A stretch of 64,000 nucleotides of DNA. Source: Minisyncoccota bacterium (GTDB lineage: Bacteria; Patescibacteriota; Minisyncoccia; Phycocordibacterales; UBA9973). Position numbers and translations under genes: made by a program. Positions 5,760 to 30,547 of the stretch are shown here, one piece after another. Numbering within the stretch: position 1 is the stretch's first letter; each line of letters starts with the position of its first letter. Where the stretch lies: assembly GCA_041665925.1 (NCBI GenBank), contig JBAYHW010000001.1, forward strand, positions 102,685-166,684, written 5' to 3'. Below the pieces are notes generated by a model. That model did not search any database, was not told the origin of the DNA, and worked only from the letters and a program-made list of their open reading frames with translations.

Positions 5760-5763
5760 AATT

Positions 5764-14098: not shown

Positions 14099-14575
14099 AT
14101 GAAAAAAGATGAAATTCAAAATTTAATCAAAGAACTTGTCGGGAAGACTACAGTAAAAGTTAATGAAATTTCTGTTGTTGAAGAAGGTCCCAAAAATATG
14201 TGGATTTCTGTACAAGTTGGCGAGCCACATTTTTTCATTTCCAACGAAGGAGAAGGTTTGCACGCCTTGAATCACCTAGTGCATCGAATCATTGAATCTA
14301 AGACAATCCGAACAGAAGAAGTTACCCCGGGGTTAGGCATCCTCATTGATATAAACGGTTTTCAAAAGAAACACATTGACAACATAAGAGCCGTTGCTCA
14401 CATGATGTCAGAGCGTGCAAGATACTTTAAGTCCAACATAGAAGTTGACCCTATGTCAGCTTTTGAGCGCAGAATAGTCCACGAGTTTCTGTCTGAGGCT
14501 CACGACTTAAAAACAGAATCTGTGGGTGAAGGGCGTTCTCGCCGAGTAGTAATTAAATACGTAGGATCTATTTAA
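14099..14575 (+). CDS. jag: Jag/KhpB RNA-binding protein (KH plus R3H domains)
   Basis: Carries the R3H motif RRIVHEFLSE and sits in the conserved position after yidC. Confidence 0.75.
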   Translation: MKKDEIQNLIKELVGKTTVKVNEISVVEEGPKNMWISVQVGEPHFFISNEGEGLHALNHLVHRIIESKTIRTEEVTPGLGILIDINGFQKKHIDNIRAVAHMMSERARYFKSNIEVDPMSAFERRIVHEFLSEAHDLKTESVGEGRSRRVVIKYVGSI

Positions 14576-15929
14576 GCCCTAGTTCCCAAAGAAAAGAGTC
14601 TTTTTTATTTACAAAAAATAGGTAATTTTCTTCTGCGTCTAACATAAGTTTGATACCATCGATATCTTCTCCACCCACGACAGTAGCTGGGTCAGCAATC
14701 ATCGTGGATGTACCAGTTGCAAGGTCTATTTTCCAGATTTGGTCTGAGAAAGATACTTCTCCTTGATACCAGGAGTCAGGATATGTTCCTGAAGGGGTGG
14801 AAGTAGGTACCGCACAGTATAGAATATCGCTTACACTACCCCAGACACACTTCTCGGGGAGTGTTCTTACCCCTACGGAATCAGAAACCTTGGTATCGGT
14901 GTGATATACCCCAAGAGATAAACCACTGTCACCATAGAGCACCAGCTTGCCACTAGGGCTCATTAAAGTAGTTAGTCCTCTTATGTTGCCTAAGACTTGA
15001 GTCATTAAACCTTTACCACTAGTGTCTACAGAATACATATATCCAGGTACAGAAGATGCTGGTTTGGTGGTGAGGGTAATAATTTTATTATTTGGGTATA
15101 AAGATAGCCATTCGGTGAATTGAGAAACAAATACTTGAACTTTTTTATTATTTGTTAAGTTCAGTGTCGCCCCGACTGCATTTTCTTTTACATTAAATAA
15201 ATAAAATAAACCAGAACCATCTCCAAGCAAACTTACATCCTTGACGTCTTCTGGCAAAAAAGCACCCTTTATCTCATTATTCTCAGTTGTGTCTCCTCCA
15301 AGGAGTTCTTCGGGTAAATTGCCGACGAAGGTAATGATGGTTTTATCATCGCCCTTTAAATATCTCATTATTACAGAATTTCCTTTGTTGCCGAAGAGGG
15401 CCTCATAAACCTTCGGTATCGTAGTCGTAGAAAATTTTCTTTCTTGAATTTTATCGGCAAAAGTTTGATAAACATTTCCTGTGGCTCTGTCTACATAGCG
15501 TAAAGCTGAAACAAATTCAGTTAATGGTGGAGTTGGTTTTGCTGTTTCGGTAGCTGCTTTCGTTGTTGGCGGAGTTTCTTCTGTTGTTGTTTCTGCGGGA
15601 GGAGTGGTAGTCACAGGAACAGGGACATCTACCAAGCGTTCCTTTTTATATACTGTGAAGCCAGCAATAGGCATACTCGAAACCTTTTTTAATTTTACTG
15701 CAAGAATGTCTGAGGGGTTTGGTTCATATCCGGAAATGTCCGTAGGGGGTGGAGGAGTGGTTGGTGGTTTTTTCCCACCATTTCCGAAGGGATTAAATTG
15801 GGAAAGAAAATTCGTCCCCTCACCTTCTTCTCCAGGAGGAATATTTCTTTGGGAAAACAAAAAAGCAAAAAATCCTACCAAGACTATGGCCAAGATTATT
15901 ATTAAAAGTATAAAATTTCTTTTTGACAT
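14568..15929 (-). CDS. Membrane-anchored secreted protein with a Pro/Thr-rich linker and a beta-propeller-like C-terminal domain. Last gene of the T4SS-like cluster.
   Basis: An N-terminal TM helix is followed by a PTTPPPPT / TTTPPAETTTEETPPTTK linker and repetitive beta-rich sequence. Confidence 0.4.
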   Translation of the reverse strand: MSKRNFILLIIILAIVLVGFFAFLFSQRNIPPGEEGEGTNFLSQFNPFGNGGKKPPTTPPPPTDISGYEPNPSDILAVKLKKVSSMPIAGFTVYKKERLVDVPVPVTTTPPAETTTEETPPTTKAATETAKPTPPLTEFVSALRYVDRATGNVYQTFADKIQERKFSTTTIPKVYEALFGNKGNSVIMRYLKGDDKTIITFVGNLPEELLGGDTTENNEIKGAFLPEDVKDVSLLGDGSGLFYLFNVKENAVGATLNLTNNKKVQVFVSQFTEWLSLYPNNKIITLTTKPASSVPGYMYSVDTSGKGLMTQVLGNIRGLTTLMSPSGKLVLYGDSGLSLGVYHTDTKVSDSVGVRTLPEKCVWGSVSDILYCAVPTSTPSGTYPDSWYQGEVSFSDQIWKIDLATGTSTMIADPATVVGGEDIDGIKLMLDAEENYLFFVNKKDSFLWELGLK

Positions 15930-15935
15930 AAAAAA

Positions 15936-17273
15936 TTATTTTAACCCCGCACAAGTTCCACTAGTTGAGTAGGATTCATTTGGTAATTTACTAAAATGCA
16001 TTGTGTCTTTTTTGCTTTTCCAATATCCACCCCAACCAAAACCTCTACTTGTGAACAATCTTACGAAAGCCGGAGGCATGTCTGTGGTGCAAGGGGTTAA
16101 GCTCGCAGCGTACGGATTTCTACTCGAATTTATATCAAGAGACAGTCCGAAAGCATGCCCAGAGGGCTGAGTAGAGCTTGTGGCATGCCTTGGATTATAG
16201 CTTCCAAGTTGTGTTATTGAATAAGCTCTTACTCGCGCATCTGTGGTTTTAAGCCTTTTCCAGTCAGCATCTATAGCTACAAGATCTTGAGCAATTGCTT
16301 TATTTACTCGCGCTGTTCCACCCAAAAAAGGAACAGATACTATTTCATCTTCAGCGCAAGAAGTAGCAGTTTGTCCGTTTACCATTGTTTTTTTACCGCA
16401 AATTACATTTGCTGCCTCTCCCGATAACTCTATTTCTGGACCTTCCGTAAATGTTACTCTTAGGGTTTCAGAAGTTAAACTTGATAAATCTGTGTTTAAT
16501 ATGTCTGGATTTATTTCATTTAATAAAGTCCAAGACCCGAGAGCGAGAACAAGACCAAAAATAGCATGAACTATCCTTTCCTTTCCGTGTTCTTTGTTGC
16601 CTGGCAGTTCACTGGTCATGTATTCTATGCCTCCGATGACAATCATAATCACAGCTAGGGCTGCGCAGATGCCGATAAACAGGGTTATCATTAAGTTTAA
16701 ATATTTACTCAAAGGGTAAGGCTCTTCTGCCGTTCCCACGGTGCTGAAAGTTTCTCCGAGTTGCGGTATTGGGGCAAGATATTTATAGGGGCTTAGAATT
16801 TTTACCGTTGCGTCTGCGTTTGCTGGTTCAGCAATATCAGCTAAAAACATACACCCACCAGCTGTTAAAATTTGAAGTTTCCAGTTACATACAGGGGGTG
16901 AGGTTACAAATATTCCACCACTTTTTTTACTGCATTCTTCTGCGGTAATTTTGTCTTCAGCAAGACGTGTCCCTTTAAGGTTATAACAATAACCCTCAAC
17001 AGAGGCGGTCTGTACTGGTGGGGCTGGGTTGGTTGCAGTATTGTATGCTGTCCAAGACACAAACTTAACATTATTTTGCTTAACGAAGTCATCACAACCT
17101 TGGCGTGTTTTTTGTTCCCACGAATGATTCAGCCTGTCTCCGCCTGGGTAGTTGTTATTAACCACGCAAGTACCCTTAGCTGGTTCAGCTGCGGCTGCGG
17201 TGTTTCTTGTTATTTGAGATGAAAACCCCATCAACACAATAAATATTAAAAAATACGTTAAAAGTTTTTTCAT
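15936..17273 (-). CDS. Cell-wall hydrolase: signal peptide, pilin-like double-TM segment, and a C-terminal peptidase M15 (VanY-like) domain
   Basis: The C-terminus has SGHAFGLSLDINSS and GFGWGGYWKSKKDTMHFS, the M15 zinc-peptidase motifs. The mid-region has two adjacent TM helices (LMITLFIGICAALAVIMIVIGGIEY and IVHAIFGLVLALGSWTLL). Confidence 0.6.
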   Translation of the reverse strand: MKKLLTYFLIFIVLMGFSSQITRNTAAAAEPAKGTCVVNNNYPGGDRLNHSWEQKTRQGCDDFVKQNNVKFVSWTAYNTATNPAPPVQTASVEGYCYNLKGTRLAEDKITAEECSKKSGGIFVTSPPVCNWKLQILTAGGCMFLADIAEPANADATVKILSPYKYLAPIPQLGETFSTVGTAEEPYPLSKYLNLMITLFIGICAALAVIMIVIGGIEYMTSELPGNKEHGKERIVHAIFGLVLALGSWTLLNEINPDILNTDLSSLTSETLRVTFTEGPEIELSGEAANVICGKKTMVNGQTATSCAEDEIVSVPFLGGTARVNKAIAQDLVAIDADWKRLKTTDARVRAYSITQLGSYNPRHATSSTQPSGHAFGLSLDINSSRNPYAASLTPCTTDMPPAFVRLFTSRGFGWGGYWKSKKDTMHFSKLPNESYSTSGTCAGLK

Positions 17274-17277
17274 ATTT

Positions 17278-18264
17278 TTAAAAGTCTACATTAATTTCCT
17301 TACTTGCGTTTTCAAAAATTTTATAATTATTACTAATCTTAAGTTTTATTGTAGATGTTCCGGACACGCCAGGTTGTACAGCTAAAGGCATCAAATTTTT
17401 TCTAAAATTTGATGCAGCTACCATATTATCATTGATAAACCAATTAAAAACCAAAGAAGGTATTCTTATATCTTTCGGAGAGATAAAGTATGGAGATGCT
17501 TCTAAAATTTCTGTATCTATTATCTGGTGTCCATCTGAAAGTGCTTGTTCCCAAAGCGTCCCGAGCTTGTCGTCTTTTTTATAAAAAATAATTTTTGGTT
17601 GTTGTGTAGATATACTGATACTTTTTTGTGAGGAGTAGGCCTGGTCAGTAGTGGAAGCCGTGACACCGATGTTGTTTTGGTCTTCTAGATAATCACTAGA
17701 GTAAATAAAAAAGTTTTTACCATAACCTGAACCATTTGGATTATTAGTATAATCTTTTTTCCAGGCATAAACCATATTTTTCGGGTCTATCATCTTTGAG
17801 CCACTTTTAACTTCAGGAATAGCTACTACACGTATTTCACTGTCTGCCGTAGGCATTGCTTTACCTTTATAAAACGGAGGGACATAGGAGTCATCTGCTT
17901 GCCAGAGTAAGACCATTACTGCAGGGCGAATTATTATTTTCGTATCTATGTCTCCATCTGGTAAGGCTATCGTAGCCACTATATTCATCTCTCTCCCAGC
18001 TTCTGGAGCAGTAACAGAGAAAGACTTTTTACCCACATCCGAGCTAACTGTTTTACCATCAACAGACCAGGAGATAGAGACACTATCTAGGTTTGTTGAG
18101 TAACTACTTAAAGTAATAGTAGTATTTTCGCCAGGATTAGGATTTTCTGGAGACATTTTAACCAAGATACTGGAAGAAGAAACTGCCTCTACTTTATAAG
18201 GCAAAAAAGCAGTTAGGATGATAAATCCTGTCATTAAAAAGAATAAAAGAAATTTCAACCTCAT
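17278..18264 (-). CDS. Secreted or membrane-anchored protein of the T4SS-like cluster (the position corresponds to a VirB8/PrgL-like component)
   Basis: An N-terminal signal or anchor, MRLKFLLFFLMTGFIILTAFLP. Only synteny supports the call. Confidence 0.3.
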   Translation of the reverse strand: MRLKFLLFFLMTGFIILTAFLPYKVEAVSSSSILVKMSPENPNPGENTTITLSSYSTNLDSVSISWSVDGKTVSSDVGKKSFSVTAPEAGREMNIVATIALPDGDIDTKIIIRPAVMVLLWQADDSYVPPFYKGKAMPTADSEIRVVAIPEVKSGSKMIDPKNMVYAWKKDYTNNPNGSGYGKNFFIYSSDYLEDQNNIGVTASTTDQAYSSQKSISISTQQPKIIFYKKDDKLGTLWEQALSDGHQIIDTEILEASPYFISPKDIRIPSLVFNWFINDNMVAASNFRKNLMPLAVQPGVSGTSTIKLKISNNYKIFENASKEINVDF

Positions 18265-18319
18265 ACTATAATTATACTCTAATACTTATATTTTCTAAAG
18301 CTCACTTTCTACCTTTGTC

Positions 18320-20203
18320 CTATCTTGGTGCATTTACTGTCTCTGGGGTAACGGCTGGACGCGCAGGAGCTAGGTCCGCAGATTCTTGCTCTTGTTTAGC
18401 TTTTTTATTTGAGAGTATTTGAGAAGGGTCAGAAGTTATGATTTGGTCTTCAGTATAAGAAGAAATAATCTTTATGGCGACATGTTTAAGGCCAGCGAAG
18501 AATATCCCCTCTCCGACGTTTGATTCTAGGAGTAAGTATTTTTCTTCATCTGTAAGGTTGAAAGTATTTTGCAAGATATCAATAGTTGTTGGTGATTGTT
18601 TCAAAAGGAGCTGAATAGAAGAGTTTGTAATAATAGGTACCCCATATGGAGACTTCATAAAGTCGGCGGCATCTTGGGTTATTGTTGCAAGCCCCAAGTA
18701 ATATTTTCTGCCTCTCTTGGCAATGGAATACAGGAAAGATGCGGTGTCTTCGGATTTCATCATCCACCAAGCTTCGTCCACCACAAGCAACCTCTTTTTT
18801 AGATTTTTTCTTACAGCATTCCAAATGTAATGCATTATGATGTACATAGCGACGGGTTTTAATTCATCTTCCATGTCTCGTACCGAAAAAACTACGAATT
18901 TTTTATTTATATCAACGTTGGAAGGTCTGTTTAAAAATGTTGCCCAAGAGCCCCGAGTGTACTTCACCAATCTTTGCACAACAGAATCGCTACCGTCCAT
19001 ACCCGAGAGCACCATTTCGAAATCTGACAGAAGCGGGGGCTCTATGTTTGAGAAATCTGATTCTGCGGTGATGTCCTTGATCGCATAAGTTTCTGAAATG
19101 GCGCGGTCAACCATAGAATCCTCCTCTGGGGTAAGTCCGCCAAGCATTAATCTAAAGAGTCCGACCAAGTTTATTATGTTTGAACGTAAAACATCTTCTG
19201 CTGTCTCATCTTCGCGAGGTATAGGCAAGTCAAAAGGGTTAATGTGGTGGTCAGAAGATAGAGAAATATTAAAGTATCGTCCACCAACGGCTTCAGCCAA
19301 GAATTCATACTCTCTTTCCGGGTCTATAACGATGACATCTGTATCAAACATCAGAGATCTTAATATTTCTAGCTTAGTGGCATAAGACTTACCAGAGCCA
19401 GACTTAGCAAATGTTACCGAATTGTAGTTCTCTAGGCTGAATCGGTCGAAGATAACCAAGGACGAGTTGTGCCTGTTTATTCCATAAAGGATTCCTTTGT
19501 CAGACGTTAAGTCTGAAGAGATAAAAGGGAAAACACTAGAAAGTGGCTCAGAGTTGAGTTTCTGGTGGATGTTTAAAATGTCTGTATTTGTAGGGATGAC
19601 GCTCTTGAAAGCTTCTTCTTGCTGGAAAAGGGCTGGCTTTATGTAAATCAGCTTAGATTCCAGCATAGACTTTATTTCATTTTCAATTTTGAATAATTCT
19701 AAATCATTGTCGGCATATATTGTAATATAAATACCCACATCAAACATTTTTTCCTGCGCCTGGATTAAATTATCTCGAAGGCCTTCTAGGTCTTGATAGG
19801 CGGTATCAAGTACTGGATCGCGCACCATCCCCTTACTTTCCCGCACGTTTATCTGACTCTGGACTTCGGCTACTTTTTTCTGGAATTGTCTTAGTACTAG
19901 AGATGTTTCTATTGGATGGATGAAAATTGAAATATCAAAGACTTTATCCAAGTTGATTATAGGAGAAAACCAATTATCAGTTAAAAATCTAGGATAAGAA
20001 ATTATGAAAAAAGTACGGGCAATTTTATCCCCGAGGTTTATTGATTTGGATTCTATCTTTAAGGCAGATGGAGCGATGACATCCTGTAATTCTAGGTTTG
20101 CAGATTCATAAATTTCTTCGGGCAAGACCGCTAGAGTAGAAGCTTGAGGAGCATCATTTGTGGGAGTGTTTTTTATTCCAAATAATTTTTTAAAAAAATC
20201 CAT
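18320..20203 (-). CDS. VirB4/TraC/PrgJ-like type IV secretion ATPase
   Basis: Walker A is FAKSGSGKSYATK. The IDPEREY motif (the VirB4 DPxGEY-like box) and the Walker B LLVVDEAWWMM (VirB4 DEAW) are present over 627 aa. Confidence 0.75.
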   Translation of the reverse strand: MDFFKKLFGIKNTPTNDAPQASTLAVLPEEIYESANLELQDVIAPSALKIESKSINLGDKIARTFFIISYPRFLTDNWFSPIINLDKVFDISIFIHPIETSLVLRQFQKKVAEVQSQINVRESKGMVRDPVLDTAYQDLEGLRDNLIQAQEKMFDVGIYITIYADNDLELFKIENEIKSMLESKLIYIKPALFQQEEAFKSVIPTNTDILNIHQKLNSEPLSSVFPFISSDLTSDKGILYGINRHNSSLVIFDRFSLENYNSVTFAKSGSGKSYATKLEILRSLMFDTDVIVIDPEREYEFLAEAVGGRYFNISLSSDHHINPFDLPIPREDETAEDVLRSNIINLVGLFRLMLGGLTPEEDSMVDRAISETYAIKDITAESDFSNIEPPLLSDFEMVLSGMDGSDSVVQRLVKYTRGSWATFLNRPSNVDINKKFVVFSVRDMEDELKPVAMYIIMHYIWNAVRKNLKKRLLVVDEAWWMMKSEDTASFLYSIAKRGRKYYLGLATITQDAADFMKSPYGVPIITNSSIQLLLKQSPTTIDILQNTFNLTDEEKYLLLESNVGEGIFFAGLKHVAIKIISSYTEDQIITSDPSQILSNKKAKQEQESADLAPARPAVTPETVNAPR

Positions 20204-20207
20204 AGTA

Positions 20208-20846
20208 TTACTCTATTTTAATTTTACCTTCTAGCTCTCCAGGATTGAAAACTTTATAAAATACCTCCACTACTTCTTCAGTACCGAGCTGAGCGGAATT
20301 TATTCCACAGCGCCCTAGCCCCTGTTGAATTACGGCCACTCTCTCTTCAAGCTGGGACCGCTTTTCTTCGAAGTCTACTTTCTTTGCTGCTTCTATTTGA
20401 GCTTTGTTCTTTTTTGAAAATAAATTTCCAAACATACCAGAGTCTGATTTTAAAATCGTGTGGGTATAAGGCACTACTACAAAAAAGCTTTTCGTCATTA
20501 TGCTAACTGTGTCTGTAAAATTCCTTATAAACTCAATATATTCTCTGGTCTGTAGTTTTAAGAGTGGTTCATTTTGTACTTTTATTCTGTTTTCCAAAAG
20601 AAGTAAATATGGGCGTATGTCTAGTCTTCTGGACTGGACTGATATTTGTATTGAAAAATCCAAGGTATTTATAAAATTTTGGAATTGAAGAATAGTTGCC
20701 TTCTGTTCCTCTTCTGATTTCAAAGATAGGTTCACGGAATTAGCGAGCACGATTGCACGCAGCTCCCCATCTTTCAGGACGATTATTCCATCACGGACTT
20801 CCTTTATTGGGACAAATTCTTGTGTTGCTTTTGCTTTTAGTGCCAT
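20208..20846 (-). CDS. Hypothetical soluble protein immediately upstream of the VirB4-like gene (possibly a split VirB4 N-terminal or accessory component)
   Basis: A 212-aa protein with no TM segment, separated from the VirB4-like gene by a 4-nt gap. Confidence 0.3.
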   Translation of the reverse strand: MALKAKATQEFVPIKEVRDGIIVLKDGELRAIVLANSVNLSLKSEEEQKATILQFQNFINTLDFSIQISVQSRRLDIRPYLLLLENRIKVQNEPLLKLQTREYIEFIRNFTDTVSIMTKSFFVVVPYTHTILKSDSGMFGNLFSKKNKAQIEAAKKVDFEEKRSQLEERVAVIQQGLGRCGINSAQLGTEEVVEVFYKVFNPGELEGKIKIE

Positions 20847-20850
20847 AAAT

Positions 20851-21282
20851 TTATTCTTTTTTACTCGAATCTAAAACATCTAGGCTCCAAGCCAAATCTC
20901 GTAATTTACTGCCGTCTAACTTGAGCCCGCTCGAAGACATCATCCTTATCTTTTCCTTGTCGCTACCTACCGACTGCCCCGCCCTGGAGCCCTTTTTTTC
21001 TTCTGTTTGTTTTTTCCAAATATAAAGCTTGCTTTGTGATAGAAATTTTACCCCGGACTCAATCATATTGATGAAAGGTTTGTTGTTTGGTCGATAAAAG
21101 GTTAAAGCCAGAGAAAATCCTCCTATGATTAAAATAGGAATTATCCCTAGGAGCAGGCCAAGCAATTTATAAAGTACAAAACACAAACCAGCACCACCAG
21201 CTAAATAAATAAATTCCCTAAAAGTAAAAGGACCGAAAATTTTGTCTTCTATTTCTAAAAATTGTGGAACCTTGAATTGCAT
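20851..21282 (-). CDS. Small double-TM membrane protein, VirB3/PrgI-like
   Basis: A 143-aa protein with a hydrophobic hairpin FREFIYLAGGAGLCFVLYKLLGLLLGIIPILIIGGFSLALTF, located upstream of the VirB4-like gene as in Gram-positive T4SS. Confidence 0.4.
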   Translation of the reverse strand: MQFKVPQFLEIEDKIFGPFTFREFIYLAGGAGLCFVLYKLLGLLLGIIPILIIGGFSLALTFYRPNNKPFINMIESGVKFLSQSKLYIWKKQTEEKKGSRAGQSVGSDKEKIRMMSSSGLKLDGSKLRDLAWSLDVLDSSKKE

Positions 21283-21359
21283 AAATAGGCTAGCTGTGAA
21301 GCTGACTCAATTATACATTAAAATTTTACTTTTGATAAACTTTATAAGAATATTTACCA

Positions 21360-21992
21360 TTATTCTGGCTTCATTCGGTATGGATCAACTGTATATGCTG
21401 TCTTTGGAGGAGCAGGAGGGGTTGGGGCTTTCGGTACGGCTTGAGGGCTGGGAGCTTTGGTAATGTTGTCCAAGGTGTGTTCAGTTTTGACTGCGGGGAT
21501 TTTCATTGGGCCAGATAACTTCTGGGCTAAAATTGGGTGAGGTTCTTCATTTTTAGATGGAATTTCTTCTTTGTTAATTATCTCAATACCAGCTGAGCTT
21601 AAAATGTCTGTGTTCACCCTTTCTTCTACAGAGACTTTCTCCGTACTGGTAGAGACCTTTTTCCTTTCTGTATTTTTAATTAATTCTTCTTTTATTTTCT
21701 TGAAAACTTTCTCATTCATTTCATTCACCAGATCATTGGCTTGAACTTTGGTGATTTTCATTCTAGCTTCTAGCTCTTGTGGATATTTTTGAGGGCTGAC
21801 AAGTCCACAAAGAAGAAGCTCTGTTTCTGTCTCCAAGTCTCCTAGTTGTTCGAAGCTATACCCCTTCGTCTCGCGCATTTTTAAAATCTCTGCCTGCCAA
21901 GGCACAGCACTGATAGCATATAGGGTATCTTCCGATAATTCTCTTTTTGCTTTCTCTATTTTTGCTTGTAATGAATTGGTTGTATCGTCCAT
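21360..21992 (-). CDS. Hypothetical protein with a Pro-rich C-terminus (T4SS-like cluster)
   Basis: An ORF with a coiled-coil-like N-terminus and a PKAPTPPAPPKT tail. Confidence 0.3.
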   Translation of the reverse strand: MDDTTNSLQAKIEKAKRELSEDTLYAISAVPWQAEILKMRETKGYSFEQLGDLETETELLLCGLVSPQKYPQELEARMKITKVQANDLVNEMNEKVFKKIKEELIKNTERKKVSTSTEKVSVEERVNTDILSSAGIEIINKEEIPSKNEEPHPILAQKLSGPMKIPAVKTEHTLDNITKAPSPQAVPKAPTPPAPPKTAYTVDPYRMKPE

Positions 21993-21999
21993 AATATAA

Positions 22000-22500
22000 T
22001 TATATAACTAATTTAAGTTTTACGTCGTCTGTTTTTTCTGAGGCTATGGGCGCCTTTGTTTTCAGGATAGAATCGGAGGAAAGAGAGACATCCTTTATGT
22101 CTACAAAACTAGAATAATCCCCACCAGAGAGCACAAAATCAAGGTTTTGTTGCCAGTTGGCATTTTTTACCTTGTCACTTTTTTTAAGATTCTCTTCTAG
22201 TTTTTCTGCGATAGGTATAAATATTTTTTCAAAAACCTCATCAGATATTTTTTCTGCCTCTTTTTTACTTGTACCTATTTCATTTTCAATATGAAGAGCG
22301 AACAAACTTGCATCCTCTATGCCAACCAACACTAATAGTATTTGTACTTGAAAATCATTTACCTCGCCTTCATTTATTAAATACCTTGTTCCGATTTCTT
22401 CAGATATTTTTTCCCAGCCAAAAGTACTAATGATCTCTCGATCTTCTTTGGGTAATTTCCCCACCTCTCTTTCAATTATTTGTTTTAGTTTATCCGTCAT
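22000..22500 (-). CDS. Hypothetical protein (T4SS-like cluster)
   Basis: A co-oriented, tightly packed ORF. Confidence 0.3.
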   Translation of the reverse strand: MTDKLKQIIEREVGKLPKEDREIISTFGWEKISEEIGTRYLINEGEVNDFQVQILLVLVGIEDASLFALHIENEIGTSKKEAEKISDEVFEKIFIPIAEKLEENLKKSDKVKNANWQQNLDFVLSGGDYSSFVDIKDVSLSSDSILKTKAPIASEKTDDVKLKLVI

Positions 22501-22506
22501 AATTTT

Positions 22507-25005
22507 TTAATGATGACCCCCCTTGTCTTCTAATTTTGCCTCCATTATTATCTTATGTGCTGCAGACCTATCTGCCCTATTAAACTTTCTAAGCCCAAAC
22601 CAGCCTTTCTGCAATCTTTCAGCCTTTGCTAATTTTCTTGCCCTGTTTTCGCCTTCTATATGATGGTGGGCATGAGGGATCGCAATATCTTCGTGGTAGT
22701 TTATTCCTTTTTGTTTTACATTTCCCTCATCGTCTATGTAAGTTCCTAGGCTTGTTTTGTACTTACTTTGATCAGAGTAATTTTTAGCTCCATTACCTGT
22801 ATCAATTACTTCAAGTTTATCTTGTTCTTCTTCATATTCTTTTCCATCTCTATCTTTTTTCTTTACCTTTACTTTTATTAAATTAACTTCTTTATCTCCT
22901 TTATAATCTTCACCATTTTTCAATGCACTCCTTCTATCTCTTAAGTTTTGTACTGCCATTCCGGCCTTTCTTGCTTCTAAGCTATCGTGACCATAGGCCG
23001 CCGCCGCAGTTTTCGATGCTTTTGTTTTTGCCTCAATTAGTCGATCTATTTCATCAAGTTCAGCAGAATTTGCTCGCATTAGTGTTTGCAAATCTCCTTC
23101 AACCTTATTTAATTCTTGCTTCATCCCTTCGTCTTCTCTTACTTCTAGTGCGTTAGCTCTTTCTTGCTCTTTCTTTTCTCTCTCTGCTCGCCTCTTGGCA
23201 TATCCACCTTGGGCATCTTTTGAAGTAACTCCTTTTATTGAATCTAGGTTTAATCCCCCCATTTTAGCTACAGCTCCAAATCCAGGAATATTTCTAGGAT
23301 CAAAAGAAGCCTTGGTGCTATAGTCGGCAAGCCCGAGAGCCATTCTGGCGCCTCGTCCCTTCCAACCATCTTTACTTAGTAAACCACCATTTAGTTTTTG
23401 AGCGGCATTCAAAGATTTGCTACTTGCAACTAAAGTTCCTAAACTTCCCATTCCTGCAGATACCGCTAACCCAGTTCCTGCAGTCGCAGCACCTAAGGCA
23501 AGCCCTCCTGCGAGTTTTACCCCCTTCAACATTGCCTCGCCGAGCTTGCCAGAACTTTCCTTGGCATATTTCGCTGCTTGAAGAAGTAAGACTAAAATTA
23601 TTAATCCGGGGATGATAAGAAAAACCATAAACTCTACCATTCCCTGGTCTGCCACTTTTCTGACTGCTAAATCTTTCCAAATATCAGCGTTTATTATTTT
23701 GAAAATAAGATACATAAAGAACATAAAAATCGGCGCCATAAAGGCCGTTTTCATCAATTTTTTTATCCATGAATCCCAGCCGATATAGTCCACATGCCCC
23801 AAAATAGGAAGAGCCGAAGACATAAACGCAAAAGGAGAAAATATAATCAGAACCCAAAGTTCAATTAATCTAGAAAGGAAAGCAATACTTGCCATAAAAA
23901 ATGCATATGCAGCAAATAGCATCATGAAACCAGCAGTTAAGGTAATTCCAATCATTATTCCAGGGGGTATGCTTGATTTATAATAAGCAACAACTTTACC
24001 AGTGTAATAAACACCAGCACCAACAATGGCCCCTACGCCTGCCCCTACGCCTGGGATTGGAATAATGTTTCCCAAGACCGCCCCCGTGGCTACAGAGGCT
24101 CCAAGGCCAAGAGTGGTTGGGGCTACTTGAGCCCTTGTCCTAGCTTTTTCAAAAAAGTCTGCAGACATAAGCTTTGTAGGGTCAAATTTACCAACAAGTC
24201 CCCCAGAAATATCCTTCTCTTCTACGTTCCCTGTCCCTCCCTTAAGCGCAGAGACATATAATCTTTCACTTGTAGTTCCGTCAGGGTTAACCATTTGTAC
24301 ATTAATTTTATTATAAAAAATTAAAGCTAAAACATTTGAAGAATCTATGACAACTTTTGTGAAAAACATACTAAAGTTTATGAGGAGGGCCATGACGACG
24401 ACTTGTACTATCATTTTTTTTGTATCGTGTCCTCCCATACCCAGGATCATCTTTATAGCTACATAGAGTAAAATAAATATAAAGAAAATATTAGACAGAT
24501 CGCGGACTATAGCCCAAGAGTCTCCTATGAATTTATGTATATACATTGAGCTGCTTAAAGATAGTGCTACAACGATGTTGAAAATATTAGCAACCAAATT
24601 AAGTATCCACCCCGGGACGACATAAAAAACATAATAAGTAAATTTTACTGCACAGGCATCAAAACCACCGGTTAGAAGCAAGCAGTCAGAAATACTTTCT
24701 TCGTATGATCTTTTGTCGTTCACCTTCTGGATCTCTGCTTCTATTTTTTCTTTTGGAGTTAGGGTTGGCGTAGTGTCTGATTTAAAACACTCCCTTACCA
24801 CTTTTCCAAAAAGCGTTGAGTCATTTTTACATTCTTCTTCAGTGGCAAATGGCCCATTAATTTCACTTCCACCAGTAAGATTGGAATGTTCCCAATACCA
24901 ACTAGCCCCCGCTTGTGCATTATTGGCTTTACCAAAAAATCCTATCCCCACGACAATGATGAGTAAGAATAAATATGGAATTATTTTTTTCAACTGTCTT
25001 ATCAT
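22507..25005 (-). CDS. Large polytopic membrane protein, VirB6/TrbL/PrgH-like, with a C-terminal charged coiled-coil extension
   Basis: An 832-aa protein with a signal or anchor, at least six predicted TM helices in the central 400 aa, and a long hydrophilic tail. It sits upstream of the VirB3-like and VirB4-like genes as VirB6 homologues do. Confidence 0.45.
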   Translation of the reverse strand: MIRQLKKIIPYLFLLIIVVGIGFFGKANNAQAGASWYWEHSNLTGGSEINGPFATEEECKNDSTLFGKVVRECFKSDTTPTLTPKEKIEAEIQKVNDKRSYEESISDCLLLTGGFDACAVKFTYYVFYVVPGWILNLVANIFNIVVALSLSSSMYIHKFIGDSWAIVRDLSNIFFIFILLYVAIKMILGMGGHDTKKMIVQVVVMALLINFSMFFTKVVIDSSNVLALIFYNKINVQMVNPDGTTSERLYVSALKGGTGNVEEKDISGGLVGKFDPTKLMSADFFEKARTRAQVAPTTLGLGASVATGAVLGNIIPIPGVGAGVGAIVGAGVYYTGKVVAYYKSSIPPGIMIGITLTAGFMMLFAAYAFFMASIAFLSRLIELWVLIIFSPFAFMSSALPILGHVDYIGWDSWIKKLMKTAFMAPIFMFFMYLIFKIINADIWKDLAVRKVADQGMVEFMVFLIIPGLIILVLLLQAAKYAKESSGKLGEAMLKGVKLAGGLALGAATAGTGLAVSAGMGSLGTLVASSKSLNAAQKLNGGLLSKDGWKGRGARMALGLADYSTKASFDPRNIPGFGAVAKMGGLNLDSIKGVTSKDAQGGYAKRRAEREKKEQERANALEVREDEGMKQELNKVEGDLQTLMRANSAELDEIDRLIEAKTKASKTAAAAYGHDSLEARKAGMAVQNLRDRRSALKNGEDYKGDKEVNLIKVKVKKKDRDGKEYEEEQDKLEVIDTGNGAKNYSDQSKYKTSLGTYIDDEGNVKQKGINYHEDIAIPHAHHHIEGENRARKLAKAERLQKGWFGLRKFNRADRSAAHKIIMEAKLEDKGGHH

Positions 25006-25045
25006 TTTTCTTTATAGGCTTTTTGGTTTTTCTAAACTGCCAGCT

Positions 25046-27232
25046 TTAATAACCAGGTAAAGTTCCTTTATAGTCTAATGCACTTGCTCTGTATATAATG
25101 CCACAGCTCAATGATATGTTTACCGATTTACTTCCTATAGAAACATTTTGGGCATTTACAAGTGGCAATCTTGGATAAGTAACTGTGCCAGTATTTATAA
25201 ATGATTCATGAGAATACCCGCCCGAAATAGGATAATCACAAAACATTGCTTGCTCTGGTGCACCTGTGGTGTATCCTGATGCTGTTCCAGTGAACACGCT
25301 CGTAGCTCCGCCTGGGTTAGCCCAACCCTTAGCTGTTCTTTCTGATGCACACTGAGTGATTAATTTGTCTAAATTTGCGGATTTATCTTTAGCTAAATTA
25401 AGCTGGTTTTGGGTGTCTTGGAGAGAATTGTCGTTAGTTACACTATCCGTAATAGTATTATATTGTTTCCATAATAAAACCATAGCCCTATCTTCTTCAG
25501 AGTCTGGGGTTGGTGGGGTTGTAATGTTGTCTAAACCTCTTTTAATGACTTGTAGGGTTATAAGCGCTTGTTTTTTTACAGCTATCTTACTTGCTAATTC
25601 ACTTGCTTCTTGATAGAGGTTTTTTAAATCATTTATTGCATCCATATAGCTTGCCGAGGAAGGTAGAGCATTGGACATTTGAGTATTTAGCCAATCTTTA
25701 AAGAAGCTTACGGCAAGGCTTAATTCATTTAGAGCTAAGTTGCCAGCGGTTGGATCTTCATCTTCGGATATAAGTTTAGAGTCATTTTTTGTTTTTTCTG
25801 TTTCTATTCTGTCTGACCACCCAAAGTCTGGTCCGGGTTGGCAGACATCTAACTGTTGGGCCTTGGGCCAGATTTCTCCAAATAGCTGCATAATTCCAGG
25901 ACCACTTTCATTTGGAGCATCGTTGGTCATTAGCATAATTTCCTTGGCTGTATTTTCTAATCCATCCGACACAGTTTTCTTGAAGCTGGTCAACTCAATT
26001 ACTTGATCAGGGCCAGTGTCCCAGGTTGTATTGGTTCCCGTAGCAGGAGCACTGCCGAGCTTTATTCCATCATAGCTCCAGTCATCTTCTTGTGGTTTTG
26101 GATTTGTTTTACTTGCTAACGCAGACAATCCATCACCGATAAATTTATTTAATAGGGCATCAAAGATAGCCGACAGACTATTCCCTAGTCCCATAGCCTG
26201 GAGGGTAGAATTCATGGGAATATTTAATGAAGTCATTATCTGATTAGCAACGACCGCTCCAGGGGTAGTACTTTTTAATCCACCCGGGCAAGCGTTGTCG
26301 TATTCCCAAAGATTTTTTTCTTCCGAAAGGGCGTATTCATAATCCGCATTCCATTTTTTTACAGCTTCTTCGTCTGCCGGAGAAGGAACCCCGCCTGTTT
26401 CTGGGTATGGGTGGTTTTTCATATAAGTTTGCTCAAACTTAGATGCTTGAGACCCCCAGCTTGGTTGATTCCATTCATTTACACCATTATTGTAATTAGG
26501 ATTAGTATCACATATTTTAGGAGACAAGAATCCTTGACCTTGCTCTAGTGTTGTCTGGACTTTTTGTTTAGCATTTTGGATGTCCATGGCCAGTCTCTCT
26601 GTCGCTGATATGGTAAATCCTAAATAATTATTTTGAGGGTACATTGTGTTTACAAAGAATCCACTCCACCCCCCTACATTAAAATTATTTTGATAATTAT
26701 AGAGTAATACTGGATCATCTCGCATCACCTCACTCAAACTATAAGAAGCATTATTTTCTAGTTTACTTTTATAACCATTTATAATATTTAAAGCGAAGTC
26801 TTTACCGAATGGAAATTTGATGACATCATAGCCCAACTTATCTACAGCTGTTTTTATTTCAGATTTGGCTATATCTTTAAAGAAAGAATCTGGGTTTTCT
26901 AAGAATAGAGGTGCTCCATGAAAACCAGAATTTATCCAGTTGACTGTACTTTTTGTCATTTCTTGCAGAGCCCTCTTGGCTACAGCCATGAGCAATTGTT
27001 TAACGATTTCTCTGGCAATATCTTTAAAATGGAGAGCGGTGTTTGTTGTTGTTTGGACAGCTGTTGTTACTGTGAATTGTTTAGCTATAAAGTGTATGAT
27101 TGCACCTGGTATTTCAGCGACAGGAATTGCTTCTGCCTTTTTTGGGGCAGAAAATAAAATAATCGTGGGTAAGAATATTGAAATAATTAACAGAGCGGCG
27201 ATAGATTTCATTTTTTTATTTTCTTTTGCCAT
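25046..27232 (-). CDS. Large secreted or surface protein (signal peptide) of the T4SS-like cluster
   Basis: A 728-aa protein with an N-terminal signal MAKENKKMKSIAALLIISIFLPTIILFSAP, Cys pairs, and no TM helices afterwards. Confidence 0.35.
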   Translation of the reverse strand: MAKENKKMKSIAALLIISIFLPTIILFSAPKKAEAIPVAEIPGAIIHFIAKQFTVTTAVQTTTNTALHFKDIAREIVKQLLMAVAKRALQEMTKSTVNWINSGFHGAPLFLENPDSFFKDIAKSEIKTAVDKLGYDVIKFPFGKDFALNIINGYKSKLENNASYSLSEVMRDDPVLLYNYQNNFNVGGWSGFFVNTMYPQNNYLGFTISATERLAMDIQNAKQKVQTTLEQGQGFLSPKICDTNPNYNNGVNEWNQPSWGSQASKFEQTYMKNHPYPETGGVPSPADEEAVKKWNADYEYALSEEKNLWEYDNACPGGLKSTTPGAVVANQIMTSLNIPMNSTLQAMGLGNSLSAIFDALLNKFIGDGLSALASKTNPKPQEDDWSYDGIKLGSAPATGTNTTWDTGPDQVIELTSFKKTVSDGLENTAKEIMLMTNDAPNESGPGIMQLFGEIWPKAQQLDVCQPGPDFGWSDRIETEKTKNDSKLISEDEDPTAGNLALNELSLAVSFFKDWLNTQMSNALPSSASYMDAINDLKNLYQEASELASKIAVKKQALITLQVIKRGLDNITTPPTPDSEEDRAMVLLWKQYNTITDSVTNDNSLQDTQNQLNLAKDKSANLDKLITQCASERTAKGWANPGGATSVFTGTASGYTTGAPEQAMFCDYPISGGYSHESFINTGTVTYPRLPLVNAQNVSIGSKSVNISLSCGIIYRASALDYKGTLPGY

Positions 27233-27260
27233 TTATTTCTTTTATTATATGACTTTTTCT

Positions 27261-28193
27261 TTAATTTTTCAATTTTTGATTAATTGCATTTGCTAGATTG
27301 TTTGAATCTGACTCTAGCTTGGCAGCATTTTTTTCATACTGACTTATCCCTCCTAAGGCTACTATTACATCTGTGTCAAAAAGCTTTATGGCGCTTAAAT
27401 TTTCCACCAATCTTTCTAGGGAATTTATCACACTTAAATGAATAGCAGAGACAGAACTCGGAACACTTATTTTTACCAAAGCATCAATCATCTTATTTGT
27501 ATTGGTGATGATTGGGTTAAGTTCTTTCAATACAGTTACATCGACATTATTCTCATCAATTATGAATTTCTGCAATACATCCAGCACGGTATAGTCCATT
27601 TTGTATTTTTGGTATACTGCAGTTAAGGCGGTGTTATAAGTTACAAAAGCCTGGACATCATTTTTATTTACTATTTTTAAATCAGACATTACAAAAACTT
27701 TTTTAGGAGCAACATTTTGCACTTTTTCAGCCAAAGAATCAGTAATCTTGTCTACGGTAGCTTGATCCATTGCTCCGCTTTGAGTTGTGGCTACGATAGT
27801 AGAGAAAAGCTCTCTAGAGAATTGGTCAGTTTGGGTTAAATTTTCTGTATCTTGGCTTGTATCGCTTGTGCCAGGAGTAGATGCTTCCTGCTCAGCTCTT
27901 AATTTTGATATGGTGACATCATCCCTGGTGCCGGGAGTGGTTTCTGTTTTTGTCGGGTCAGTACCCCACAGTGTTTCTTCCCAGTCGGCAATGCCGTCCC
28001 CGTCTGTGTCTTTAGAGACTAGTTCCCCAATGGTTGTGGTTCTATAAGTTAAGCCTTCTTGGTTTGGTGTTTGGTTTTCATTACCTTTTTTAAATAAAGA
28101 GGTCACCATAGATGGGTCTTTTATTACAAAAAGCATCGCAAGAAATAGCACCGCAAAGACGATTAGAAATATCCTTTTGTGTTTTGCCCACAT
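27261..28193 (-). CDS. Membrane-anchored protein with a Ca-binding-like DTDGDGIADWEE motif. First gene of the cluster.
   Basis: An N-terminal TM helix followed by a thrombospondin-type-3/dockerin-like Asp-rich loop. Confidence 0.35.
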   Translation of the reverse strand: MWAKHKRIFLIVFAVLFLAMLFVIKDPSMVTSLFKKGNENQTPNQEGLTYRTTTIGELVSKDTDGDGIADWEETLWGTDPTKTETTPGTRDDVTISKLRAEQEASTPGTSDTSQDTENLTQTDQFSRELFSTIVATTQSGAMDQATVDKITDSLAEKVQNVAPKKVFVMSDLKIVNKNDVQAFVTYNTALTAVYQKYKMDYTVLDVLQKFIIDENNVDVTVLKELNPIITNTNKMIDALVKISVPSSVSAIHLSVINSLERLVENLSAIKLFDTDVIVALGGISQYEKNAAKLESDSNNLANAINQKLKN

Positions 28194-28238: not shown

Positions 28239-29009
28239 CTATAGAACAAGTGGAATCCAGTCCGAAAGAGCCAAGTCTTCGGCTCTTTTATTCCCCAGGT
28301 CTTCAAGTAAACCAAATTTTTCATTTTTTTGTAGTATTTTTAGGTTGGAAGAGAGCTTTTTTCGCTTGTGAGCAAAACCTGCCCTAATTATTTCCCAAAA
28401 ATTGCCTTCGTTTATGTTATTTTTCTCAAAAAATTGTCTTGAGATGTTTTTTATTGAAATTATAGCTGAATCCACCTTCGGAGCCGGGGAGAAATATCTT
28501 TTTCCTACTTTCATGACCATTTTTGGCTCCCCGTAAGCTTTGACGGAGATAGACAATATGCTTTCTTTTCCATCACGGGTGACAATTCTCTGTGCTACTT
28601 CATTTTGAACCATTAGGACCATAAGGCTAGGCTGGTTTTCTGCAGTTAAAAATTTTTTCAAAATTGCGCCAGTGATGTTGTAAGGGATATTGGCGATGAT
28701 TTTATAGGCTCTAGGCCCTAGGCTCTGGGCGCTAGTATTGAATTTTAAAATATCATCATTAATTAAATTTAATTTTCCAGATGAAATTTCTTTTTCAAAT
28801 TTAGTTTTTAAAAGGTCAAAAAGTTCACGATCTTTTTCTACCGCTATTACTTTTCCAGCTTTCTCTAAAAGTTTTGAAGTTAACGCTCCTTTTCCGGGGC
28901 CAATTTCTAAAATTACATCACGAGGAGTTACTTCTCCCGCTTCAATAATTTTATGCAAAGCCATCTCTGATTTCAGGAAATTCTGCCCGAGTGATTTTTT
29001 TGCCCTCAT
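28239..29009 (-). CDS. rsmA: 16S rRNA (adenine1518/1519-N6)-dimethyltransferase
   Basis: The N-terminus MRAKKSLGQNFLKSE and the SAM-binding motif EIGPGKGALT match KsgA/RsmA. Confidence 0.9.
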   Translation of the reverse strand: MRAKKSLGQNFLKSEMALHKIIEAGEVTPRDVILEIGPGKGALTSKLLEKAGKVIAVEKDRELFDLLKTKFEKEISSGKLNLINDDILKFNTSAQSLGPRAYKIIANIPYNITGAILKKFLTAENQPSLMVLMVQNEVAQRIVTRDGKESILSISVKAYGEPKMVMKVGKRYFSPAPKVDSAIISIKNISRQFFEKNNINEGNFWEIIRAGFAHKRKKLSSNLKILQKNEKFGLLEDLGNKRAEDLALSDWIPLVL

Positions 29010-30547
29010 ATAGATAAAATATCTTTTATAGTAAATAAATTTTTAGGAAAATAATTTTCTATAGTTGGCTGCATTAGTTTTTCTACGGGTGAAAAGTTAT
29101 CCGTTAAAATTATCGAATCTATGTCTTTAAAATGTTCCGCTAGAATTAATTTTCTTGCTAAGAAGTTATTTTTCCCCACTAATAACTTTTTATAAAGCTC
29201 CAGTTCACTTATAGGTAACTCTCCTTTTACCCCTACCAATACTACGTTTTGTACATTTTCAGGATTTTCACCAAACCCAAAAATATACAAATTTGGGAAG
29301 CTTATTTTGAAAGTATTTAATACACTTTTAGTGAATTCAGATTTTTCTCCAGCAAGTGAGCCGATAAAATTGATAGCATAAATTCCCCTATCATTTAATT
29401 TTTCTTTGATTTCATTATTCCATTCTTTCGTAAGTAGGTACCAAGGCACTGAGATAAAAGAATTATAAGCATCACCAAAAATCAAATCATATGTCTTGGT
29501 GTTTTTATTTATTATAATCTTCGCATCGCCTATCAATGTTTCTATGTCATATTTTTTGAGATCAAAAAAATTATTACCAATATTTATCATTTCTGGGTCT
29601 AGCTCTACAACTGAAACCTGGCTACTTTTATAAAAATCTTTAAAATATTTAGGCATTGTGTATGCCCCAGCCCCAATAACTAGTATATCTTGCACGTCCC
29701 TTTTTAAATTTGCAAATATCGGATATATTTCTGGATAATCCTGAATCTCATTTTCTGGTTGAATACTATGAAAATCAAAATCCAATGCTAAAACCCTTGA
29801 ATTACCATATGTAGGGACATAAGCATCTATAACTTTGGCGTCATAATAATTAGTTTCTTTTTCGTATACCACTTTTTTATTTAAGGTTTTTTGTTGCGTT
29901 GTGAAAATAATTATCGGTACAAAAACAACAGTCAAAATAAAAATTAGCAACAATTTTTTGTCTTTTATTGCGAAAATCAAACCTACTAAAAATAAAATTA
30001 CAGCCATTACCCATATTGTTTCTGCGCTTCCAATGTTTGAGATAAAGAAAAATCCAGTTAAAAACACCCCCAATATCCCACCAGCTGACCAGGCAAAAGA
30101 CAGAGTGCCGTACCGACTACCAATTTCCGAGAAATTTAAAGCAAATTTCTTCAGTATTATTGGTTGAATCAGCCCTATAGCTAGCGTGGGCAATAAAAAT
30201 AGATAGACAGATATCAAGAGATTAAGTCTTAAAATTGAATCAGAGGAGCTGGTGATAAAATCTGTATTGTGGGCCAAGGTTGGTATTAAAGACACGAAGA
30301 CAGAAGAGACCAAAAAAACCAAAGGCAAGGGGCTATTGCCTTCTACTTTATCGGCTATTTTACCCCCAATAAAACTTCCCAAGGCAAGCCCAGATAGGGT
30401 TATCCCTATAACCGACGTCCAAGTAAATACAGAAGATCCTATTATCGGAGCGACTACTCTTCCAGCAATAAGCTCTACGGTCATTACCGCAAATCCAGCT
30501 AAAAAAGAGCTGAATACGTAGAAAGATTGTTTATTTAAAATTTCCAT
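29006..30547 (-). CDS. Spermidine-synthase-like aminopropyltransferase fused to an N-terminal multi-TM domain
   Basis: About 230 aa of N-terminal TM helices are followed by an SpeE-like Rossmann core with VIGAGAYT, VELDPEMI and GDAY. Confidence 0.55.
   Translation of the reverse strand: MEILNKQSFYVFSSFLAGFAVMTVELIAGRVVAPIIGSSVFTWTSVIGITLSGLALGSFIGGKIADKVEGNSPLPLVFLVSSVFVSLIPTLAHNTDFITSSSDSILRLNLLISVYLFLLPTLAIGLIQPIILKKFALNFSEIGSRYGTLSFAWSAGGILGVFLTGFFFISNIGSAETIWVMAVILFLVGLIFAIKDKKLLLIFILTVVFVPIIIFTTQQKTLNKKVVYEKETNYYDAKVIDAYVPTYGNSRVLALDFDFHSIQPENEIQDYPEIYPIFANLKRDVQDILVIGAGAYTMPKYFKDFYKSSQVSVVELDPEMINIGNNFFDLKKYDIETLIGDAKIIINKNTKTYDLIFGDAYNSFISVPWYLLTKEWNNEIKEKLNDRGIYAINFIGSLAGEKSEFTKSVLNTFKISFPNLYIFGFGENPENVQNVVLVGVKGELPISELELYKKLLVGKNNFLARKLILAEHFKDIDSIILTDNFSPVEKLMQPTIENYFPKNLFTIKDILSI

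Follow-up and report, generated by a model that had tools for sequence, protein, structure and literature searches.

The window analyzed here is a 64-kb stretch (64,000 nucleotides, nt) of the genome of a Minisyncoccota bacterium (assembly GCA_041665925.1, contig JBAYHW010000001.1, positions 102,685 to 166,684), and our subject is a cluster of eleven co-directional open reading frames (ORFs) on its minus strand, between positions 14568 and 28193. A first-pass annotation had read this cluster as a Gram-positive-type type IV secretion system (T4SS) without coupling protein or relaxase, probably non-conjugative. Matches to VirB4, PrgI, pilin and wall hydrolase families support this reading; the ATPase is thus accompanied by other T4SS components, namely a PrgI-like protein, a VirB2-like pilin and a wall hydrolase. 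Our ORF scans covered all ORFs of at least 100 amino acids (aa) in the window, plus the 71-aa yidD.

Coding sequence makes up 98.3% of the cluster, with gaps of 4 to 77 nt between genes, and the products measure, in order of transcription, 310, 728, 832, 166, 210, 143, 212, 627, 328, 445 and 453 aa. Independent gene calls on the source contig (ENA ERZ27249449 k141_1314271, 193.8 kb) delimit identical genes, which confirms the tight packing and the coordinates first described, and the same cluster proteins are found under locus tags WCT44_* in an NCBI metagenome-assembled genome (MAG) labelled 'Candidatus Paceibacterota'. GC content (0.37-0.39) does not differ from that of the remainder of the window, and no frame disruption is present. 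A promoter and terminator scan of the cluster gave counts not above those expected from shuffling. On the minus strand, the best three promoter-like sites coincide with the three largest gaps (5' of the 728-, 143- and 328-aa genes) and are not significant. The genes are as follows.

27261..28193, minus strand: 310-aa membrane-anchored protein with a TSP3-like Ca-binding motif; first gene of the cluster
25046..27232, minus strand: 728-aa secreted or anchored protein with an N-terminal hydrophobic segment; directly upstream of the VirB6-like gene
22507..25005, minus strand: 832-aa polytopic protein of 'extended VirB6' type, by predicted fold
22000..22500, minus strand: 166-aa small protein, probably cytoplasmic; paralogue of the 210-aa protein
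21360..21992, minus strand: 210-aa small cytoplasmic protein with a Pro-rich tail and no transmembrane (TM) segment; paralogue of the 166-aa protein
20851..21282, minus strand: 143-aa PrgI/VirB3-like protein (Pfam PrgI above cut-off)
20208..20846, minus strand: 212-aa VirB4 N-terminal domain, TrsD/TraC-like (partial NCBIfam and Pfam matches)
18320..20203, minus strand: 627-aa VirB4 ATPase, middle domain and C-terminal motor (NF045971, PDB and PrgJ matches)
17278..18264, minus strand: 328-aa membrane-anchored extracellular protein with immunoglobulin (Ig)-like domains (structure model)
15936..17273, minus strand: 445-aa protein with a pilin hairpin and an M15 peptidase (T4SS_pilin, Peptidase_M15_4)
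14568..15929, minus strand: 453-aa anchored or secreted protein with two Pro/Thr-rich linkers; last gene of the cluster

Related loci were collected by a VirB4 scan with one genome per species, which returned 579 loci, and the best 80 of these 579 were kept. According to their labels, they come from MAGs of Nomurabacteria, Paceibacteria, Parcubacteria and 'Saccharibacteria', and some are labelled only 'bacterium'. The organism of the window is a Patescibacterium of the Paceibacteria/Nomurabacteria type and not a Saccharibacterium.

The VirB4 motor and its membrane platform

The 627-aa protein is a VirB4 ATPase. It scores 367 bits against NF045971 (VirB4-like conjugal transfer ATPase, CD1110 family; cut-off 325 bits) over profile positions 182-733 of 752, and so falls in the NCBIfam family to which PrgJ, the VirB4 of the enterococcal plasmid pCF10, belongs. 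It aligns with residues 228-772 of PrgJ at 25% identity (E 8e-41), and its best solved structure is the Thermoanaerobacter VirB4 4ag5 (E 8e-40), followed by TrwK (E 1e-7). The Pfam match to P-loop_TraG (E 5e-26) far exceeds that to HerA/DUF87 (E 4.6e-6), and the protein is not primarily FtsK- or HerA-like. All three motifs noticed in the first-pass annotation (GSGKSY, IDPEREY and DEAW) are present and intact: Walker A G269SGKS, I293DPEREY and Walker B D476EAW. The best NCBIfam families for this VirB4 are those of monoderms (CD1110 and Mycoplasma integrative conjugative element (ICE)).

The profile match to the 627-aa protein begins well inside the family, and its N-terminal part is found in the preceding gene. 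The 212-aa protein matches positions 2-165 of the CD1110 VirB4 profile (E 1.9e-5), positions 101-258 of the Mycoplasma-ICE VirB4 profile (E 9e-11), TrsD (E 4e-6) and positions 3-174 of VirB4_CagE, in each case below the full-length cut-off, and has a precomputed Pfam match to PF26593 (TraC-like); a PDB sequence search gave no match. Only 4 nt separate its stop codon from the virB4 start codon. Judged by these sequence matches, the N-terminal domain of VirB4 has a gene of its own here, and the 212-aa protein is its product. Since a separate ORF of about 212 aa is found in 75 related loci (median identity 73%), the split is a conserved feature and not a frameshift. The protein had been put forward as a candidate for a VirB8-like component; its matches to N-terminal VirB4 profile positions and to TrsD exclude this assignment. 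It is also the TrsD homologue listed in PMC12102498, where that homologue is described as the most abundant T4SS-associated protein in Patescibacteria.

The 143-aa protein reaches 32.5 bits against Pfam PrgI (cut-off 27, E 1.2e-7) and contains one hydrophobic stretch of 41 residues (24-64), long enough for the two TM helices with which it had been described. Found in 75 of the 80 loci with a median identity of 57%, it is presumed to be the membrane anchor for VirB4.

The 832-aa protein has a signal or anchor segment, a Cys-containing extracellular N-terminal region, about seven to eight TM helices, as expected of the polytopic VirB6-like protein it had been taken for, and a long charged C-terminal domain of coiled coil and beta hairpin. 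It has no family match in Pfam or NCBIfam, nor has any of its 120 homologues listed. A profile search of the PDB returned coiled-coil noise only, and its profile shows no similarity to PrgH. An AlphaFold2 model built with 50 homologues (predicted local distance difference test (pLDDT) score 74 overall, 80-93 in the membrane core) has R388 TrwI, a VirB6, as its best structural match; in Foldseek, entries of the R388 stalk complex take ranks 1, 2 and 3, without reaching significance. The profile of the 832-aa family shows weak similarity to the TrwI sequence in the last TM helices (E 6.8e-4), and a tblastn search of 72,556 plasmids with the TM core gave no match. The model thus suggests an 'extended VirB6-like' protein at the level of fold, rather than a member of a VirB6 sequence family.

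Between this gene and the PrgI-like gene lie two small genes whose products (166 and 210 aa) are paralogues (BLASTP E 9e-6, 24% identity over 110 aa). Neither matches a known T4SS family, or any Pfam or NCBIfam family significantly, and tblastn detects them in 20 and 30 of the 80 loci, respectively. One relative (L084) has a gene of the 23S_rRNA_IVP family (5490-5852) inserted in the cluster, after the small paralogue genes and before the PrgI-like one.

The pilin-peptidase fusion and the other outward-facing proteins

The 445-aa protein consists of a signal peptide, a Cys-containing extracellular N-terminal domain (about 29-186), a VirB2-like pilin hairpin (187-258) and a C-terminal M15 (VanY-like) zinc peptidase. 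The hairpin matches T4SS_pilin (E 3.4e-10), TrbC (E 5.5e-5) and the NCBIfam Mycoplasma-ICE pilin-like family (E 1.5e-6), and the peptidase matches Peptidase_M15_4 (E 3.1e-15), so that the fusion of an M15 hydrolase to a pilin-like double-TM segment, as first described, holds on both sides. With the zinc-site motifs kept (S371xHxxGxSxD380 and D423xxH426), the cell-wall peptidase is apparently active. The cluster has a membrane-anchored peptidoglycan hydrolase, the VirB1 function, from an enzyme family other than that of the SLT/CHAP-type hydrolases reported as monoderm VirB1 proteins. A search of the six-frame ORFs of the window with a hidden Markov model built from aligned hairpins found no second pilin.

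Of the 80 related loci, 70 have a pilin gene in this position, and we examined 70 such proteins, that of the window and 69 from related loci. The hairpin is conserved (59 of the 70 pass T4SS_pilin at E <= 0.001), and 68 carry an extracellular region C-terminal to it, never shorter than 97 aa and as a rule some 160-280 aa long. These C-terminal regions form 19 unrelated BLAST clusters, and the N-terminal domains form 30. The C-terminal clusters, annotated from representatives, are the following.

NlpC/P60: 12 members
VanY: 8 members
M15_4 (window included): 7 members
YkuD: 5 members
SLT_2: 2 members
Cluster with a weak lysozyme-like match: 3 members
Unannotated clusters of at least two: 13, 4, 3 and 2 members
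Single-member clusters: 9

At least five unrelated families of peptidoglycan-acting enzymes, plus several unannotated types, are thus carried by one conserved hairpin, and they are reshuffled among species whose VirB4 proteins are more than 90% identical. Pairs with VirB4 90-95% identical share the C-terminal cluster in 16% of cases, and more distant pairs in 8-12%; M15_4 occurs in none of the 15 nearest VirB4 neighbours of the window. Domain type does not track VirB4 phylogeny and is uncorrelated with VirB4 identity. Examples of pilin genes in relatives are L001:12861-14174, L003:12851-13798, L004:12903-14033 and L013:12882-13979. In one relative the gene in this position encodes nothing but a pilin, of 151 aa (L084:10001-10456), which indicates that the hairpin is the basic unit and the enzymes are add-ons.

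Four further proteins had been described as secreted or anchored, and an N-terminal hydrophobic segment is indeed present in each (310, 728, 328 and 453 aa). In the 310-aa protein this segment (3-31) is followed by the Ca-binding DxDGDG loop noticed earlier, D62TDGDG...W71, which lies within a weak match to TSP3_bac (E 6.6e-5, below cut-off). The loop is conserved in relatives, with D62 and W71 invariant in 33 homologues, and the sole PDB profile match (E 2.9e-4) falls on a Ca-binding repeat in a biofilm surface protein. The C-terminal region looks helical, the profile shows no similarity to PrgL/VirB8, and the position of the gene is common to relatives.

The 728-aa protein (hydrophobic segment 7-32) has no Pfam or NCBIfam match and no significant PDB match, by sequence or by profile. 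Its gene position is conserved, and its identity in relatives is only 20-48%. The protein may be part of the surface, of a stalk or of an adhesin; to call it VirB5-like would be a guess from its position, and its profile shows no similarity to TrwJ/VirB5. Within its family, T2SS-T3SS_pil_N is matched in 3 of 36 members and DUF4141 in 1 of 36, a weak hint of a pilus-associated role.

The structure model of the 328-aa protein (pLDDT 80) shows a single TM helix and, after it, three Ig-like domains that are all-beta. This protein was the other candidate for a VirB8-like NTF2 fold, for which a structure prediction had been suggested; the all-beta Ig-like model rules that fold out.

The last protein of the cluster (453 aa) begins with a hydrophobic segment (1-30), contains the Pro/Thr-rich linker already noticed, and has a conserved C-terminal domain of about 300 aa. 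It matches no Pfam or NCBIfam family and has no significant PDB profile match; 63 full-length homologues are encoded at the same position, with 36-67% identity. PG_binding_1 is matched in 2 of 46 family members, a weak hint of a wall-binding role.

Chromosomal setting and conservation among relatives

On one side the cluster is flanked by jag (R3H), yidC, yidD, rnpA, dnaA and dnaN, and on the other by ksgA, the gene of a 513-aa membrane protein, and uvrD. In Paceibacteria, the T4SS is reported to adjoin dnaA, dnaN, rnpA, ksgA and rpmH (PMC12102498), and the cluster lies in this hallmark position, by dnaA, dnaN, rnpA and ksgA. The 513-aa protein (29006-30547), between ksgA and uvrD, is polytopic, with a weak spermine-synthase-like domain (E 1e-3); as it has no tblastn match in the 80 loci, it looks like a lineage-specific insertion beside the cluster.

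Gene order and flanks are unchanged in about 40 loci for which full 10-kb flanks were available, from different Paceibacteria species. The shared order is uvrD, ksgA, 310, 728, 832, (166, 210), 143, 212, 627, 328, pilin, 453, jag, yidC, dnaA, dnaN. Median identities to the window proteins are as follows.

VirB4: 85% (80 species)
DnaA (11196-12536): 79%
VirB4 N-terminal domain, 212 aa: 73%
PrgI-like protein, 143 aa: 57%
Surface and membrane proteins: 29-45%

Because gene order and chromosomal position match those of about 40 related genomes, the cluster is not an ICE; it is a vertically inherited core locus whose motor is under strong purifying selection. With VirB4 more conserved than DnaA and the catalytic motifs intact, it is functional and not a remnant. 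Nor is it bounded by an integrase and att sites: the sole tyrosine recombinase of the window (49268-50227) lies 21 kb off among housekeeping genes, no tRNA gene adjoins the cluster, and a search for att direct repeats around it gave only short imperfect chance matches.

The absence of VirD4 and relaxase from the window, as first reported, is borne out by two kinds of search. No window ORF of at least 100 aa has a Pfam match to a type IV coupling protein (T4CP) or a relaxase, and tblastn with pCF10 PcfC (T4CP) and PcfG (relaxase) gave no match in the window or the 80 loci. No T4CP or relaxase was found within 10 kb of virB4 in the 80 relatives. Among the pCF10 proteins searched by tblastn against the window and the 80 loci, PrgJ alone gave a match; PrgD, E, F, G, H, I, K, L and M, PcfA, PcfC and PcfG gave none.

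The cluster had also been compared with the order PrgH-PrgI-PrgJ-PrgK of enterococcal conjugation systems. The overall succession of VirB6-like protein, VirB3-like protein, VirB4 and hydrolase stands, but the correspondence is not strict: the VirB6-like and PrgI-like genes are separated by two small ones, the gene of the VirB4 N-terminal domain precedes virB4, and the 328-aa gene stands between virB4 and the hydrolase gene. With the Prg/Pcf system of pCF10 the cluster shares a VirB4 of the PrgJ NCBIfam family, a PrgI-family protein and a membrane-anchored wall hydrolase downstream of virB4. It differs in having no PcfC, PcfG, PrgL (VirB8-like) or PrgB adhesin, in its split VirB4, in a VirB6-like protein without sequence similarity to PrgH, and in a hydrolase that is an M15 enzyme on a pilin hairpin, unlike the hydrolase domains of PrgK; monoderm VirB1 proteins are described with an SLT plus CHAP-type arrangement (PMC12102498). 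Moreover, pCF10 is a plasmid, whereas the cluster is chromosomal and fixed.

With the Trw system of R388 (MPF-T), the likeness lies in TrwI, the best structural match of the 832-aa model, and in the hairpin, which matches the TrbC/VirB2 Pfam family (TrwL being the VirB2). No Pfam match to a T4SS family was found in the window beyond those of VirB4, PrgI and the pilin, with no search specific to the outer-membrane core (VirB7, VirB9, VirB10) or to VirB11 having been made. A counterpart of the VirB5 TrwJ was not seen, the 728-aa protein being dissimilar, and no VirB8, T4CP or relaxase was found.

Proposed role and alternatives

The system to which the cluster belongs has been described. Quinonero-Coronel et al. 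(2025; PMC12102498) reported a Patescibacteria-specific VirB4 clade nested in MPF-FATA, with TrsD, PrgI, VirB6 and VirB2-like pilins near virB4. The cluster of the window shares with the Paceibacteria T4SS of that study the gene of the TrsD-like N-terminal domain, the PrgI/VirB3 protein, a putative VirB6-like protein and the VirB2-like pilin near virB4, as well as the absence of a nearby relaxase or T4CP and the chromosomal position; nothing essential differs, and the fusion of pilin and enzyme and its exchange are not mentioned there. Wang et al. (2023; PMC10633639) showed that in Southlakia epibionticum (Saccharimonadia) an origin-proximal T4SS, SEML1_0006-0019, is essential for epibiotic growth and has no recognisable coupling protein or relaxase. 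Here too the likeness is close, with a cluster that is chromosomal, close to the origin and Gram-positive-like in composition, pilin genes within it, a peptidase or lysozyme downstream of virB4, and no recognisable coupling protein or relaxase. Southlakia has six divergent small pilins in an array, whereas the window has one hairpin inside a 445-aa multidomain protein; Southlakia also belongs to a different class of Patescibacteria, and essentiality has been demonstrated in Southlakia only. No T4SS other than that of Patescibacteria, the subject of a review (PMC12857230), is known as essential for the growth of its owner, and this one seems unrelated to conjugation (PMC10633639, PMC12857230). 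As these three publications already contain the system, the first-pass interpretation was right but is not new.

We conclude that the cluster is very probably this published monoderm-type (MPF-FATA-related) T4SS of Patescibacteria, uncoupled from conjugation and serving contact-dependent exchange with a host cell. In T4SSs, VirB4 hexamers sit on an inner-membrane platform of VirB3, VirB6 and VirB8, VirB2 is pulled from the membrane to form a stalk or pilus, and VirB1-type enzymes open the peptidoglycan. By this established architecture, a hexamer of the split VirB4 would dock on a platform of PrgI-like and VirB6-like proteins in the cytoplasmic membrane and drive the pilin hairpin to assemble into a short stalk or pilus that spans the wall, while the fused peptidase domain would cut peptidoglycan locally. 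The Ig-like, Pro/Thr-rich and Ca-binding proteins could then form an outer, contact-making layer. By analogy with the genetics of Southlakia, the machine would serve contact-dependent exchange with the host (protein export or uptake of host molecules), and not transfer of a plasmid or ICE or ComEC-linked DNA uptake.

Several points weigh against this interpretation. Archaea lack peptidoglycan, so that a host-directed peptidase would be pointless in archaea-associated lineages, and an association with methanogenic archaea is reported for some Paceibacteria (PMC10936435). The host-interaction role is extrapolated from another class, the Saccharimonadia. No VirB8-like component was found among the candidates (212-, 328- and 310-aa proteins), VirB8 being hardly ever detectable in Patescibacteria (PMC12102498). 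Finally, the negative results for T4CP and relaxase in this genome are those of the 64-kb window, and in most Patescibacteria genes resembling VirD4 are reported at a distance from virB4 (PMC12102498).

Two other functions deserve consideration. One is a DNA-uptake machine resembling Helicobacter pylori ComB or archaeal Ced, which would take up host DNA for nucleotides or transformation together with a type IV pilus (pilB) and comM. ComB and Ced are T4SS-derived importers that work without T4CP or relaxase. Such importers thus exist (Ced is cited in PMC12102498), Patescibacteria lack de novo nucleotide synthesis (PMC10633639), and both pilB and comM are present in the window. We nevertheless find DNA uptake improbable. 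In Southlakia, according to the passage of PMC12857230 on PMC10633639, transformation needs ComEC and deletion of comEC is viable, while the T4SS is essential, so the role of that T4SS is not ComEC-linked DNA uptake. In the window, moreover, 12 kb separate the cluster from pilB and 33 kb separate it from comM; the two genes stand amid unrelated housekeeping genes and do not belong to the block of conserved synteny.

The other function, to which we give slightly less credence still, is conjugation proper, that is, a working DNA-export machine whose coupling protein and relaxase genes lie in another part of the genome. Some T4SSs have their t4cp gene near that of the relaxase, 5,713 VirD4-like homologues, mostly at a distance from virB4, are reported from 2,918 Patescibacteria genomes (PMC12102498), and our analysis covered 64 kb of the genome, on a source contig of 194-238 kb. 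However, relaxases occur in just 103 of 3,035 Patescibacteria genomes (PMC12102498), and the distant T4CP homologue of Southlakia is not essential, while its T4SS genes are, according to a citation in PMC12102498. The lack of a relaxase or T4CP within 10 kb of virB4 in the 80 relatives argues in the same direction, as does the finding that in about 40 species the cluster is fixed beside the origin region and not carried by a mobile element.

A decayed, functionless remnant of an integrated conjugative element, which the missing conjugation modules and the presence of virB4 in two ORFs might suggest, has virtually no likelihood and was rejected on synteny and conservation: 75 loci keep both halves of virB4 as intact ORFs, conservation is higher for VirB4 than for DnaA, the VirB4 motifs are intact, synteny is kept across species, and the cluster is 98% coding, without frame disruptions or an integrase, att or tRNA boundary.

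The window therefore offers no new system, but a clean and fully syntenic Paceibacteria example of this T4SS, which sharpens its parts list: a VirB4 in two genes, an extended VirB6-like protein predicted by fold, and no VirB8-like protein among the obvious candidates. The contrast between a conserved motor and hypervariable outward-facing parts, together with the exchanged cassette of pilin and wall enzyme, points to where host specificity may lie, and makes the hypervariable parts and the pilin enzyme concrete targets for biochemical or co-culture tests.

The fusion of the pilin to a wall-enzyme domain that differs between close relatives may itself be new, as neither the fusion nor its exchange was found in PMC12102498, PMC10633639 or PMC12857230. 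It can be read in two ways. Any wall-opening enzyme might fill the VirB1 role, so that non-orthologous replacement would be tolerated. Alternatively, the pilin-borne enzyme could face the wall of the host and follow its chemistry, a view that we regard as rather unlikely. The single VirB2-like pilin would then be a modular display scaffold and its enzyme a host-directed 'warhead' matched to the host wall, not merely a VirB1-like helper opening the wall of its own cell, which we put forward as an equally doubtful extension. If true, the pilin-borne enzyme would let the epibiont breach the wall of its host for feeding or effector delivery.

The other larger ORFs of the window are housekeeping genes, except for five without a Pfam match (814, 559, 579, 290 and 242 aa). 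Three of these, at 35746-38190, 42281-43960 and 43997-45736 (814, 559 and 579 aa; no Pfam match at E <= 1e-4), might encode additional proteins of the surface or of host interaction. On the other strand, some 5 kb upstream of the cluster, two genes encode secreted-looking enzymes, one with LysM and Peptidase_M23 domains (32916-34019) and one Peptidase_C39-like (34032-34760). The presence of pilB, comM and a dksA-like gene in the window, noted in the first-pass annotation, was confirmed; the last encodes a 119-aa DksA/TraR-type C4 zinc-finger protein (61253-61612, E 3e-6) directly upstream of comM/YifB (61632-63206), at 33 kb from the cluster and not within the block of conserved synteny.

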